Source: an uncultured archaeon (GTDB lineage Archaea > Thermoproteota > Bathyarchaeia > Bathyarchaeales > Bathycorpusculaceae). From it: a DNA stretch of 64,000 bases. The notes below the pieces were generated by a model, which saw only the letters and a list, made by a program, of their open reading frames with translations, was not told the DNA's origin and searched no databases. Numbering within the stretch: position 1 is the stretch's first letter; the number at the start of each line of letters is the position of its first letter. Positions 4,509 through 23,371 of the stretch are shown here, piece after piece. Location: NCBI GenBank assembly GCA_963782915.1, contig CAWALK010000015.1:262792-326791 (forward strand), read 5' to 3'. The position numbers and the translations under genes are program-made.

Positions 4509-4690
4509 AAAAAAAAAAAAAATATATATAATATTATTATATATATATATTTATATATATATTATATTATTTTATTATATTATATTATATTATTATATTA
4601 TATTATATTATTTTATTATATTATATTATATTATTTTATTATATTATATTATATTATTTTATTATATTATATTATTTTATTTTATTTTAT
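4509..4690. repeat. Pure A/T low-complexity tract, poly-A then (TATTA)n-like
   Basis: About 180 bp with no G or C. Confidence 0.9.
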
Positions 4691-11049: not shown

Positions 11050-12193
11050 GTGGTTTTTGAGTTTAGTCTTCTAATTCTTCAACTTTCCTCAAGTAATCCC
11101 TCAAGCATCGGCTTTGCACCTTCAAGCACTTGCAGACGCTTCTTTAACGCATATATTTCTGTGTCTTTAGATTCAACAGTTCGCAGAGTGACTTGTGGCA
11201 CCAGAAACGGCAAACACATCTTGAAACAGAGTCAAGTAATCCTCATTCGGCTTATCCTCACTGTCTTGATGGTTCGCGTAGGTGGCTTCAATTCCCGTGG
11301 GTTTATGAGAGGTTAAAGGTTTAGCCAAGTTTGCATTAGCTTTTACCTGTGGTTTCTCCAACACTGTGCTGATTACATCACGGATATCATGGATGCTAAA
11401 CCGTTTTTTAGCGAGGTTTCCCCATGCAATTTCGGAAGCCCTTTCAAAAATCCCGGATGTTGTCATTAGTGGTCCGCCTTTCACTGCGCCCCAGGGGTTG
11501 TTATTGTAAGCCATGAACAGTGGTGAAGTCTCAGTGTATGTCTATGCCTCTTTGTTTGAGTTCCAGTTTGTAGGCTTCCAATTTTTGGGCTGCATAGTAG
11601 TGGATGAAGCCAACGTGTTTTGCTCCTTTGTATTTGCCTTTTCCCTGTCCTTTTAAGCGGTCTGATTTCACGTTTATCCAGTAAGGCACTTCTGGATCGT
11701 TTAGATGGTTTTAGATCGCTCCACACTAATTTTCTGAGGGTTCCGGCTCTGACTGGGCATGATACGAGGAACCATAACATGAATTTGTCACGTTGGGTAG
11801 TCATTGCCTCTTCGAGTTCGATGACGTCTTCTATTGTGGGGGATCGTTTTTTGGATTCGGGTGCTTCAAACTCTGAGCCTACATCGGGAGCTAAATCTCG
11901 TCCTCTTGTGGCTGAATAGAAGCTTTTTATGGCTATGAGTAAACCGATTTTTGCTGATGCTGTAATATTGTCTGATTGGAGATAGGTTTCTAAGAGGGTT
12001 TCTGCTTGGAATTCTTTTTCTGTGGCTGGATGCTGTAAACCTTCAAGTTTTAAGGTGATTAGTTCATCGGGGTTCTTTTTGGTTGCGTCGCAGTATCGTT
12101 TTAGTCGGCGGGTGTATTCAAGTTCTGTGTAGGGGCTGTTTTTGAGTTTTTTGTTATAGAAGTTGTTGTCCGCTGGTGTAGGATAGGAGCCAT
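11050..12193 (-). CDS. Tyrosine recombinase/integrase (several apparent indels)
   Basis: Catalytic residues across frames: CPVRAGTL (R), HDIR (HxxR), SHK (H), EATY (Y); N-terminal NPDELI..AIKSFY SAM-like region. Confidence 0.85.
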
Positions 12194-12244: not shown

Positions 12245-12319
12245 CGGTTTTATTATGTTACTCGTGCCTACCACATTTTCTTTTATTTTTCCGTTAGTCT
12301 TAATGGTGAATAACGCAAA

Positions 12320-12415
12320 GCGAAATCAGGGTTAACTCAATACAGGCACCAAATTCGTTCTTTCTTTCTCTTCCAGAATTTTCCGCTTGCATTGAGTTAG
12401 CCTTGATTCAGCCAA
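12320..12415 (+). promoter_or_regulatory. Structured 5' leader of tfs copy 1
   Basis: AATCAGGGTTAACTCAAT pairs with ATTGAGTTAGCCTTGATT; pyrimidine loop ending TCTCTTCC; same architecture at 22882-22985. Confidence 0.7.
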
Positions 12416-12432
12416 ACAAAGGTGAATAAAAA

Positions 12433-12780
12433 ATGGATTTCTGTCCAAACTGTGGCTCTATACTTTTCCCAAAAACCGTTGAAGTCGGCTCTCAAGCAAT
12501 GCTAATTCTAACCTGCAAAAAATGCGGCTATACAAGCAGAGAACCAAAAGAAGATACCAAAATTGAATTGAAGACTATCCAGCATAATCCCAAACAGATG
12601 GTTGCAGTCATAGACAAAGCAGAAGATGTTAGCGTTGAACCGACTATTCAGATGGAGTGCCCAAGATGCGGCAATAGGACCGCTTATGTTTGGCAGGTGC
12701 AGACGAGAGGGGCAGATGAATCGTCCACGCAATTCCTCAGGTGTACAAACTGCGGGTTTACGTATAGAGAAAACACTTAA
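12433..12780 (+). CDS. tfs: Transcription elongation/cleavage factor TFS (RpoM family)
   Basis: Two Zn ribbons, QTRGADE acidic hairpin. Confidence 0.92.
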   Translation: MDFCPNCGSILFPKTVEVGSQAMLILTCKKCGYTSREPKEDTKIELKTIQHNPKQMVAVIDKAEDVSVEPTIQMECPRCGNRTAYVWQVQTRGADESSTQFLRCTNCGFTYRENT

Positions 12781-12858: not shown

Positions 12859-12935
12859 TGGTGCGGTAACCGGGATTTGAACCCGGGTCCTAGACTTGGC
12901 AAGCCTATGTACTGACCAAGCTGTACTATTACCGC
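12859..12935 (-). tRNA. tRNA-Gly (GCC), CCA encoded
   Basis: Reverse complement GCGGTAATAG...TAGGC-TTGCCAA-GTCTA...GGTTCAAATCC...ACCGCACCA folds as a cloverleaf. Confidence 0.97.
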
Positions 12936-22505: not shown

Positions 22506-22657
22506 CCCCATATTTCTTGGGTAAAGACCCTCTAGGTTTATGCATAGATTAACTATTTTGAGCCTTTTATTAGCGGTTAGTCGGTTGTTGCTGTATCGAA
22601 GCTACAACATCGCTTAATATGGCACCTAAGCCATAGGTGACTCGCAAGGCACCAGAT

Positions 22658-22825
22658 ATGCTAAAACAAGTTTTCCGATGTCCAATCTGCAGAAAAAGCA
22701 TAACCAACCCCGAACAATTAAGGCTCCACCGAATAAGCAGACACAGAGGAACAGTCTGTGGCGACAACTGGTTAGCGCCCCGAAAAGTTGTAGTTGTAAC
22801 CGTGCAGCCACATGATTATTTATGA
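22658..22825 (+). CDS. Small C2H2 zinc-finger protein
   Basis: FRCPICRKSITNPEQLRLHRISRH. Confidence 0.7.
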   Translation: MLKQVFRCPICRKSITNPEQLRLHRISRHRGTVCGDNWLAPRKVVVVTVQPHDYL

Positions 22826-22881
22826 TTCAACAGGACCTATGTTGTAATCGCGTAGGATGTGATAATATCCAAAAGCGTCAG

Positions 22882-22985
22882 GCGAACCAACAGTTAGTTG
22901 AGGCACAAGCAAAGAAGTGTTTTCCCTCTCCCTCTCTCTTCCGTATACTTTCGTTTGTGCCCCAGCTAACCGAATGGCAAGCCAA
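22882..22985 (+). promoter_or_regulatory. Structured 5' leader of tfs copy 2
   Basis: Stems GTTAGTTG/CAGCTAAC, GGCACAAGC/GTTTGTGCC, AAGTGT/ATACTT; pyrimidine loop ending TCTCTTCC. Confidence 0.7.
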
Positions 22986-23017
22986 CGAACAGTTTTGTTT
23001 AGGAGATGAAAAGTAAA

Positions 23018-23371
23018 ATGGAATTTTGTAAGGAATGCGGTTCAAGACTAAAACCCGTAAAAATACATTCAGGAAACCAAGCAATGATAATGTTAGCCTG
23101 CACCAAATGTGGGCAAAAAAAACAGGAAACCGAAGTCAATGCGAAAACGTTTAATGGCAAAGTTATTGAGCATAGCCCAAAACAGTTCGTTGCAGTAATC
23201 GGCAAAGAAGAACAGGAACTAACCACTATGCCAACAATACAGATCGATTGCCCAAGATGCGGAAACAACACGGCTAATGTTTGGCAAGTGCAGACCCGCG
23301 GTTCTGATGAGTCTTCGACGCAGTTTGTGCGGTGTATTCGGTGCGGTTTCACTTTTAGAGAATACACCTAG
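23018..23371 (+). CDS. tfs: Transcription elongation/cleavage factor TFS, second paralogue
   Basis: Two Zn ribbons, QTRGSDE. Confidence 0.92.
   Translation: MEFCKECGSRLKPVKIHSGNQAMIMLACTKCGQKKQETEVNAKTFNGKVIEHSPKQFVAVIGKEEQELTTMPTIQIDCPRCGNNTANVWQVQTRGSDESSTQFVRCIRCGFTFREYT

Follow-up and report, generated by a model that had tools for sequence, protein, structure and literature searches.

In bacteria, sibling small RNAs (sRNAs) such as RsaE/RoxS, LhrC1-5 and the streptococcal csRNAs form sets of paralogues in which an unpaired C/U-rich motif, carried on variable scaffolds, pairs with Shine-Dalgarno (SD) regions; these RNAs have rho-independent terminators and use Hfq or other chaperones. 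RNAs of the CsrB/RsmZ kind display a short motif in repeated hairpin loops and titrate an RNA-binding protein; CsrB carries many GGA loops on one RNA, and we know of no CsrA-like partner in archaea. In Escherichia coli, a structured leader that acts as an attenuator precedes greA, a transcript-cleavage-factor gene. Among archaeal RNAs, sRNA154 and sRNA41 of Methanosarcina mazei have been described as sRNAs with anti-RBS loops that mask the ribosome-binding site (RBS) and repress translation (PMC5867862). Here we analyze a stretch of 64,000 nucleotides (nt), called the window throughout, from an uncultured archaeon of the Bathycorpusculaceae (Bathyarchaeia; assembly GCA_963782915.1, contig CAWALK010000015.1, positions 262,792 to 326,791). 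Two genes of the window, tfs1 and tfs2, encode TFS-type transcript cleavage factors, and each is preceded by a hairpin of about 100 nt. An earlier note on this DNA compared these hairpins to the greA leader and took them for a candidate regulatory element of TFS. We are highly confident that they belong instead to a structured RNA family with many copies per genome, which is not specific to tfs.

These CU-loop hairpin RNAs are a previously undescribed family. Like sRNA154 and sRNA41, the CU-loop element is an intergenic, stable stem-loop with an unpaired loop that is complementary to RBS-like purine pentamers. Unlike them, it has at least 13 siblings per genome that share one invariant 13-nt loop, and there is no relation in sequence or in Rfam. 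Further differences are that the element comes from uncultured Bathyarchaeia, that in some copies it would be joined to a protein gene's leader, and that it is known here from sequence alone. Its likeness to the bacterial sibling sRNAs is a functional analogy only, and the loop motif is longer and more strictly conserved in the CU-loop family.

Direct reading of the sequence confirmed that both hairpins of the window are present. Their positions are:

12320..12412, plus strand: hairpin copy 1, with a stem of 12324-12356 paired to 12376-12408 and outer G-C pairs of 12320/21 with 12411/12.
12357..12375, plus strand: apical loop of copy 1, 19 nt, a divergent form of the family loop (..UUCUUUCUUUCUCUUCC.).
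22881..22983, plus strand: hairpin copy 2, with nested stems 22893-22900, 22902-22910 and 22914-22920, partners up to 22970, and outer pairs to 22983.
22921..22944, plus strand: apical loop of copy 2, 24 nt, carrying the family motif CCCUCUCUCUUCC.

Copy 1 folds with a minimum free energy (MFE) of -38.0 kcal/mol (z -6.06), and copy 2, whose nested stems overall join 22881-22920 to 22945-22983, with an MFE of -40.2 (z -2.79). None of 200 shuffled sequences was equally stable in either case: the hairpins reported by the earlier note are real, and their stability goes well beyond that of shuffled sequence. On the opposite strands, folding is less exceptional (z -2.82 for copy 1 and -2.04 for copy 2). 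With its 33-nt arms, copy 1 is the longest inverted repeat of the window, excepting an AT-only tract at 4509-4622; this tract of about 110 nt consists of an A-run followed by TA/TAT repeats and contains many overlapping palindromes. The reported distances from hairpin to start codon are correct, at 17 nt for tfs1 (ATG 12433) and 32 nt for tfs2 (ATG 23018), as are the flanking 5' GCGAA (12320 and 22883) and 3' AGCCAA (12410 and 22980). The shared loop octamer TCTCTTCC is also found at 12367 and 22935, but it is not significant on its own: the window contains four matches against 1.64 expected, and 10 of 100 shuffles reach four. The statement that the two stems differ completely was too strong, as both contain the common blocks GTTAAC/GTTAGT, GGCAC and AGTTAGCC/AGCTAACC, and both copies match one covariance model.

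We used two covariance models, R1 built from three copies of relatives and R2 built from 30 copies. R2 matches copy 1 at 12314-12416 (37.0 bits, E 2.7e-6) and copy 2 at 22876-22986 (46.8 bits, E 6.7e-9). In 40 relatives, the same layout of a long stem with different letters and the loop CCCUCUCUCUUCC was found before some tfs paralogues. Of 120 genomes in the genus, 80 had at least one match to R1, and single genomes had as many as six; these counts are lower bounds: the sensitivity of R1 is limited, and G017, one of the 40 genomes without a match, carries a divergent copy (L043). We inspected a family set of 92 copies from 59 genomes, 89 of which carry the CU loop according to a simple regular expression. 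The earlier note had looked to covariance models over relatives for corroboration, and both covariation and loop conservation were indeed found in other genomes.

The copies in the window's own genome (G000) show that the family extends well beyond tfs. R2 gave eight matches there with E values of 1 or less, and for five of these E was <0.001. Two are the tfs copies; the remaining matches, on contigs C15, C17, C20 and C25, are distant from any TFS gene. A search with the complement of the loop 13-mer recovered five further hairpins with the same loop. The genome therefore holds at least 13 copies in total, two beside a TFS gene and at least 11 far from any. This finding of the hairpin at unrelated loci, which the earlier note itself had named as a refutation, contradicts the proposal of a TFS-specific element. 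What stands of the proposed cis-RNA is that the structure is under RNA-level selection and should form part of both tfs leaders; what falls is its restriction to TFS.

Five copies are found within about 27 kb of contig C15, namely those at G000:C15:258926, 260396-260486 and 261313, just before the start of the window, and the two window copies. Several relatives have two copies 25-40 kb apart on one contig. Together, these arrangements suggest a conserved multi-copy region. Elsewhere in the genome, the copies at G000:C15:3542-3645 (minus strand) and G000:C17:7790-7893 (plus strand) are almost the same, a similarity that extends over 100 nt into the flank on either side, and represent either a larger segment duplicated between contigs or the same region assembled twice.

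The distribution of the family is narrow. Among 151 genomes searched at the level of the order, nine had a match to R2, and every one of them belongs to the window's family: the genus had matches in 7 of the 12 genomes sampled and a sister genus in one of six, against none of 116 in eleven other families. The RNA family is so far confined to one genus plus one match in the sister genus. An exact pattern of helix core, loop and helix core, scanned over 185,579 species with one genome each, returned 44 stretches, of which 31 are titled Bathyarchaeota or Bathyarchaeia (several being "Bathy6" isolates), three "uncultured archaeon" and 10 carry bacterial titles; one of these 10 lies on a contig equal in length to contig C33 of G067, a member of the genus. 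The element is also carried (L153/L114) by a complete metagenome-assembled genome described from lignocellulose-impacted sites (PMC11697101). In Rfam 15, where the earlier note had proposed to look, the window hairpins match no described family. The only hit to the window at the gathering threshold was tRNA-Gly, and seven loci of the genome searched at E up to 1 returned only transfer RNA (tRNA) and a microRNA model far below threshold (31 bits against a cut-off of 82). The literature that we searched contained no description of the motif or of any Bathyarchaeia sRNA, and a term search of the available text of PMC11697101 gave no hits.

We then asked what the sequence differences among copies say about selection. 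Fifty-nine copies, all on the CU-loop strand, were aligned to R2. In this alignment 91.0% of pair cells are standard pairs, and sliding the partners by 1-3 columns reduced this fraction to 30-45%. Compensatory changes occur in 26 of 28 pairs, compared to a shuffled mean of 14.7 with none of 500 shuffles reaching 26, and the covariation score is 0.305 compared to 0.178 for shuffled data; these shuffle counts overstate significance, since the alignments followed the structure of the model and the sequences share ancestry. A separate count on 90 copies found compensatory changes in 27 of the 28 pairs and loop columns that are identical in 84-90 of 90 rows. Alignment guided by the model was needed for this analysis, and MAFFT with RNAalifold did not recover the stems from the two window copies or from seven copies. 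A near-invariant loop on freely covarying stems indicates that the loop is the working surface and the stem its scaffold.

The pairs also identify the selected strand. Consensus pairs on the CU-loop strand include 251 G-U pairs and 70 A-C mismatches. The A-C mismatches would be G-U pairs on the other strand, and therefore selection acts on RNA of the CU-loop strand. Moreover, the z-score was more negative on this strand in all seven copies of the window's genome that were folded both ways. Total G-U counts from free folding (277 vs 320) were indecisive on the question of strand, and consensus-pair counts and z-scores were used instead. The structure is thus clearly selected as RNA, and on this point the earlier note, which had argued for selection on sense-strand RNA structure, is borne out by the covarying stems, the conserved loop and the excess of G-U over A-C.

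These data also bear on the possibility that the repeats act as DNA, either as a palindromic site for protein binding or recombination (attC-like, or serving replication or partition) or as a decayed miniature inverted-repeat transposable element (MITE). A long inverted repeat with a palindromic core in many copies would suit such an element, as would the cluster of five copies in 27 kb of C15 and the near-identical C15:3542/C17:7790 pair with its flanks. However, pairing is kept on one strand only, and the asymmetric invariant loop, together with a promoter-like block and a T-run that each lie on one side (see below), gives the unit a direction. Copies within the genome have diverged except for that one pair, and their neighbourhoods are conserved between species. 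The copies do not lie in cassette arrays, although no search was aimed at an integron-type integrase, and a scan of viral contigs with the exact pattern returned one match, which has no hairpin. We therefore regard a DNA-level element as very improbable.

Beyond the hairpin, most copies share a common organization. A promoter-like block lies upstream of 82 of the 92 copies and reads ..GTTGTAG.., CA(G/A)TCACA and, after a few bases, TTATTTAT (also written GTTGTAG..CAGTCACA). The spacing from the end of the block to the model match is 10-26 nt in short forms and 50-57 nt in long forms, where the gap holds a small GGAU..AUCC hairpin and AAAAGCG. The TATA-like part of the block resembles boxes before tRNA genes of this genome, for example CTATTTAT. 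A loose regular expression for the block had 14 matches in the window's genome, and the four that are followed by a CU-loop hairpin are those of the CAGTCACAT/CAGCCACAT..TTATTTA form. Each copy then has a stem of 25-35 bp, which in many cases contains the palindromic core GGTTAAC ... GTTAACC, and an apical loop, CCCUCUCUCUUCC, that hardly varies. Downstream, 65 of 92 copies have a T-run of at least four no more than 20 nt past the match, at a median position of 6 nt. The same run was found in 18 of 91 windows taken 350 nt further on, in 30 of 92 on the opposite strand and in none of 92 upstream windows, and at the level of sequence most copies thus have an oligo-T termination signal. Many short-form copies have a CU-rich 3' tail. 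In many short-form copies of relatives (for example L087, L096, L106, L125 and L130) a conserved ..(G)ATCAAATAAAAAC.. also follows the T-run, 30-45 nt past the hairpin; this motif could be the promoter of the neighbouring gene or a part of the unit.

Other readings of the unit were considered and rejected. Orthologous copies are 97-113 nt long and their length differences are not divisible by three, and therefore the element is not coding. The upstream block might have encoded a small protein's C-terminus, and several copies do keep an open frame, but they have no open reading frame (ORF) or domain in common. H/ACA, C/D-box and K-turn readings, judged by eye, failed for want of a pocket, of boxes and of any Rfam match. 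Small ORFs with one C2H2 finger (CPIC..QLR.HR..H) precede three copies: copy 2 of the window (22637-22825, plus strand), the copy at C15:261313 (about 150 nt upstream of its loop) and a copy at 345-449 of C25. These ORFs have weak Pfam matches that include a double-stranded-RNA-binding zinc-finger model (E 0.003). As a general partner of the family the C2H2 ORF was dismissed, since it precedes three copies in this genome only and none of 45 checked copies in relatives.

The layout of promoter-like block, stem-loop and oligo-T would suit an archaeal RNA, about 100-170 nt long, that starts and stops independently, and we think it likely that the element forms a stand-alone transcript at most loci. 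As an explanation for the family as a whole, many-copy CU-loop small-RNA genes with the loop as effector are on balance the account that we favour. Several observations weigh against it, in addition to the limited sensitivity of R1 and the bias of the shuffle counts noted above. Promoter, terminator and transcript ends rest on motifs in the sequence. T-runs of at least five within 30 nt are found in only 31 of 92 copies, and copy 1 has no T-run. The MFE of the whole hairpin is lower on the CU strand in only 55 of 92 copies and does not separate the strands.

We next considered how the family relates to tfs. The remaining features of the two window loci are:

12271..12290, plus strand: promoter-like block of copy 1, consisting of CCACA and a TATA-like T/A-rich run CTTTTATTTTT; assigned at the level of motifs, with a predicted RNA start near 12312.
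12421..12425, plus strand: RBS of tfs1, GGTGA, as read from the sequence.
12433..12780, plus strand: tfs1, a TFS paralogue of 115 amino acids with the acidic loop RGADESSTQF.
22787..22824, plus strand: promoter-like block of copy 2, GTTGTAGTTG..CAGCCACA..TTATTTAT, with its TATA-like part at 22816-22823; the block is conserved in relatives.
22855..22870, plus strand: small 5' hairpin of copy 2 (GGAUGU..AUAUCC) followed by AAAAGCG, from the fold of L003; relatives have the same GGAU..AUCC and AAAAGCG, which are typical of long-form copies.
22993..23000, plus strand: weak oligo-T stretch TTTTGTTT between the copy 2 hairpin and the RBS, a possible partial terminator.
23002..23009, plus strand: RBS of tfs2, GGAGATGA, as read from the sequence.
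23018..23371, plus strand: tfs2, a TFS paralogue of 117 amino acids counted from ATG 23018, with RGSDESSTQF; an upstream ATG at 23006 is also open.

Both genes encode TFS/TFIIS-type transcript cleavage factors. The TFIIS zinc ribbon (PF01096) was detected at E 2e-17 in tfs1 and 9.6e-15 in tfs2, with an acidic DE loop in each, and the N-terminal RPB9-type ribbon (PF02150) at 1.6e-6 in tfs1 and at 0.005, under the cut-off, in tfs2. At copy 1, the match to a ..CACA..T-rich TATA expression ends 23 nt before the model match, and there is no T-run of four or more between the hairpin and the tfs1 ATG. At copy 2, the promoter-like block overlaps the end of the weak C2H2 ORF.

This arrangement is what might be expected of a cis-acting leader or attenuator dedicated to tfs that senses backtracking of RNA polymerase or termination. 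Each window copy has a promoter-like block upstream and the tfs RBS downstream, no second promoter-like motif is present, and both copies should, by their position, be part of the tfs leaders. Many long-form copies have a T-run of 4-7 before the RBS, which could terminate a share of transcripts. Like the E. coli greA leader, the CU-loop hairpin holds the place before a cleavage-factor gene, both in the window and in 23 of 26 tfs2-type genes. Unlike the greA leader, it is not confined to tfs and survives without it, and copy 1 has no terminator. A tfs gene follows 27 of the 92 inspected copies and does not follow the other 65. Among the best 30 loci, an intact tfs comes next in 14; in the other 16 the gene is broken, reduced to a C-terminal remnant (..ESSTQF..) or absent, and in some of these an Hsp20 gene follows instead. 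The hairpin nevertheless keeps a high model score upstream of decayed tfs2-type genes. Such decay has occurred repeatedly in relatives (L062, L071, L057, L058, L060 and L083), through early stops or through internal deletions that leave only the C-terminal zinc ribbon.

The converse is also found, as many tfs genes have no hairpin. The window's genome has six TFS-like genes, and only tfs1 and tfs2 carry it. In a tree of 72 TFS proteins (117 columns, many forks weak), tfs1 and tfs2 fall into one clade of 35 genes (support 95/86), apart from the genus's canonical TFS and a third paralogue, neither of which was ever found with the hairpin. Eleven of the 35 genes have no hairpin. Three of these are in the tfs2-type half (L015, L040 and L041); all three retain the promoter-like block, and a short remnant hairpin is left in two of them. 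The tfs1-type half contains a single gene with the hairpin, the window's tfs1, which sits on a long branch; in the other eight, the block stands directly before the gene. Hairpins without tfs and tfs genes without hairpins show that the two are separable in both directions.

Predicted pairing between loop and RBS in cis also weighs against a dedicated leader. The earlier note had proposed it for copy 2, where the duplex is weak (-6.7 kcal/mol); for copy 1 it is nearly absent (-3.1), and the median over naive genome starts is -4.7. By this measure, tfs genes as a group do better than naive genome starts, as any true RBS would, and tfs genes without the hairpin score better than tfs genes with it; the comparison is thus uninformative on a role in cis. 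It is also confounded, because true RBS-bearing genes all beat the naive background, which is a further point against reading RBS pairing from these energies. With exclusivity to tfs already contradicted by the scattered copies, we consider a dedicated tfs leader quite improbable, though it is possible as a local, secondary role. Where hairpin and tfs are joined, the gene has an RBS and no promoter-like motif of its own, so that tfs is most simply read as transcribed through the hairpin and is probably made by read-through. In one old lineage of the family, the unit lies directly before a TFS paralogue, often with hsp20 after it.

The copies also have other conserved neighbours. An Hsp20 gene is found downstream of 12 of the 92 copies, in some cases beyond tfs and in others as the immediate neighbour. 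One subtype has a Toprim (DnaG-like) gene 140-230 nt downstream (7 of 92 copies). Positions before tfs-hsp20 and before the Toprim gene are kept between species, and no gene co-occurs consistently beside the 92 inspected copies.

The TFS genes themselves showed some additional features. Before the canonical TFS gene of the genus lie a strongly conserved promoter of its own (..TAGAAAAAGTTTAAAAG..) and a conserved leader (..GCTAAGGGAATCC..AAACGGAU..), seen at L002 (G000:C22, about 60-20 nt before the tfs ATG C22:241353) and at the orthologues L009, L012, L014, L016-L021, L023 and L025-L030. This leader is unlike the CU-loop element and may represent a small leader motif in its own right. Two TFS-like genes at G000:C24:7831-8163 and G000:C20:1832-2164 are 42% identical to tfs1, have ..AADETIHAS.. 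in place of the RG(A/S)DESSTQF region and share a conserved upstream region; judging from their sequences, they may be divergent paralogues with altered activity. Around tfs1, a tRNA-Gly(GCC) gene lies on the other strand at 12859-12935 (minus), 79 nt past the stop codon, and two overlapping ORFs without a Pfam match occupy 11173-11804 (minus) upstream. These ORFs, 11173-11514 and 11481-11804, looked integrase-like by eye, but for lack of a Pfam match this reading was dropped. The small tfs1 locus, with tfs1 on its long branch, may be a rearranged or acquired segment.

Finally, we considered how the loop might work in the small RNAs that we favour. The loop would act as an anti-SD-like seed, pairing with purine-rich RBS regions (AGAGG, AAGAG, GGAAG) and lowering translation in trans and perhaps in cis. 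The pentamers AGAGG, AAGAG and AGGAA are enriched before start codons in this genome, and the loop complements them. Nine-mers complementary to the loop occur 34 times in RBS position compared to eight times for a reversed control, a crude control used with naive start calls. In three complete relatives, 4-9 sites complement the 13-mer, compared to 0-4 for the reversed control. Four paralogous secreted glycosidase-like genes have GGAAGAGAGA before the start, and the third TFS paralogue, with AGAGAGGG, is a further candidate target. The four secreted paralogues start at G000:C18:82318, C1:165751, C19:162148 and C23:138370; they encode a signal peptide and, in some, a glycoside-hydrolase-like N-terminal part and Pro/Thr-rich linkers. 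All four also have the conserved leader ..AAAUUCAGGAAGAGAGAAAAAA.., in which a purine run is complementary to 10 nt of the family loop. The 3' end of 16S ribosomal RNA was not found in the assembly by a regular-expression search, so the anti-SD sequence of the organism was not read.

In addition to the crude control for RBS position, two findings count against anti-RBS pairing. Exact complements of the 13-mer in this genome are the elements themselves, with no full-length trans site elsewhere, and an invariant loop of 13 nt exceeds what pairing with varied RBSs needs. Together, these two findings favour a single conserved partner such as a protein. The CU loop could accordingly be the binding site of one conserved RNA-binding protein, which the copies titrate or deliver. 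Like CsrB and RsmZ, the family presents a conserved short loop motif many times per cell and could titrate a protein; unlike CsrB, it has one CU loop per RNA and many genes. The near-invariance of the loop across differing structural subtypes in the 59 genomes suits this idea, as does the absence of a long complementary target in this genome, and stems that vary freely while pairing is kept behave as a scaffold would. Candidate partners would be an Sm-like protein or a factor with KH domains, for example archaeal NusA or aCPSF1/FttA. A partner of this sort would tie the family to transcription elongation and termination and so, loosely, to TFS. KH domains bind C-rich single strands (PMC3367169). 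A preference of archaeal NusA for CU-rich RNA was not confirmed in the literature searched. On the other side, no gene lies consistently beside the copies, and the C2H2 ORF seen at three of them here is missing from the checked relatives. We regard a protein-binding or decoy RNA as rather unlikely, and hold anti-RBS pairing, as the mechanism of the favoured small RNAs, only tentatively; any partner of the loop is speculative.

Regulatory RNAs of uncultured archaea are almost unknown. In this case, comparative sequence alone yields a well-supported structured RNA family, in which the invariant loop marks the functional surface, and the number of copies in one genome, at least 13, is unusual among archaea. 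The idea of an autoregulatory TFS leader is attractive but too narrow, and is corrected here. Metatranscriptomes from soils and lignocellulose-rich sites, where these archaea abound, could be mapped against the family as a concrete target, and it offers a handle on the expression of TFS paralogues and hsp20. A broader interpretation, which we consider unlikely as a whole, is that Bathy-6-type Bathyarchaeia possess a regulon of about a dozen sibling sRNAs with one special promoter block and the invariant CCCUCUCUCUUCC loop as effector, serving either as an anti-SD mimic that throttles genes with purine-rich RBSs or as a decoy for a CU-binding elongation or termination factor, and with one ancient member fused to a TFS paralogue and hsp20. 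If true, no large family of sibling sRNAs would have been described in Archaea before this one, and RNA regulators, a transcript-cleavage factor and a chaperone would all be induced by a stress signal through a single type of promoter.

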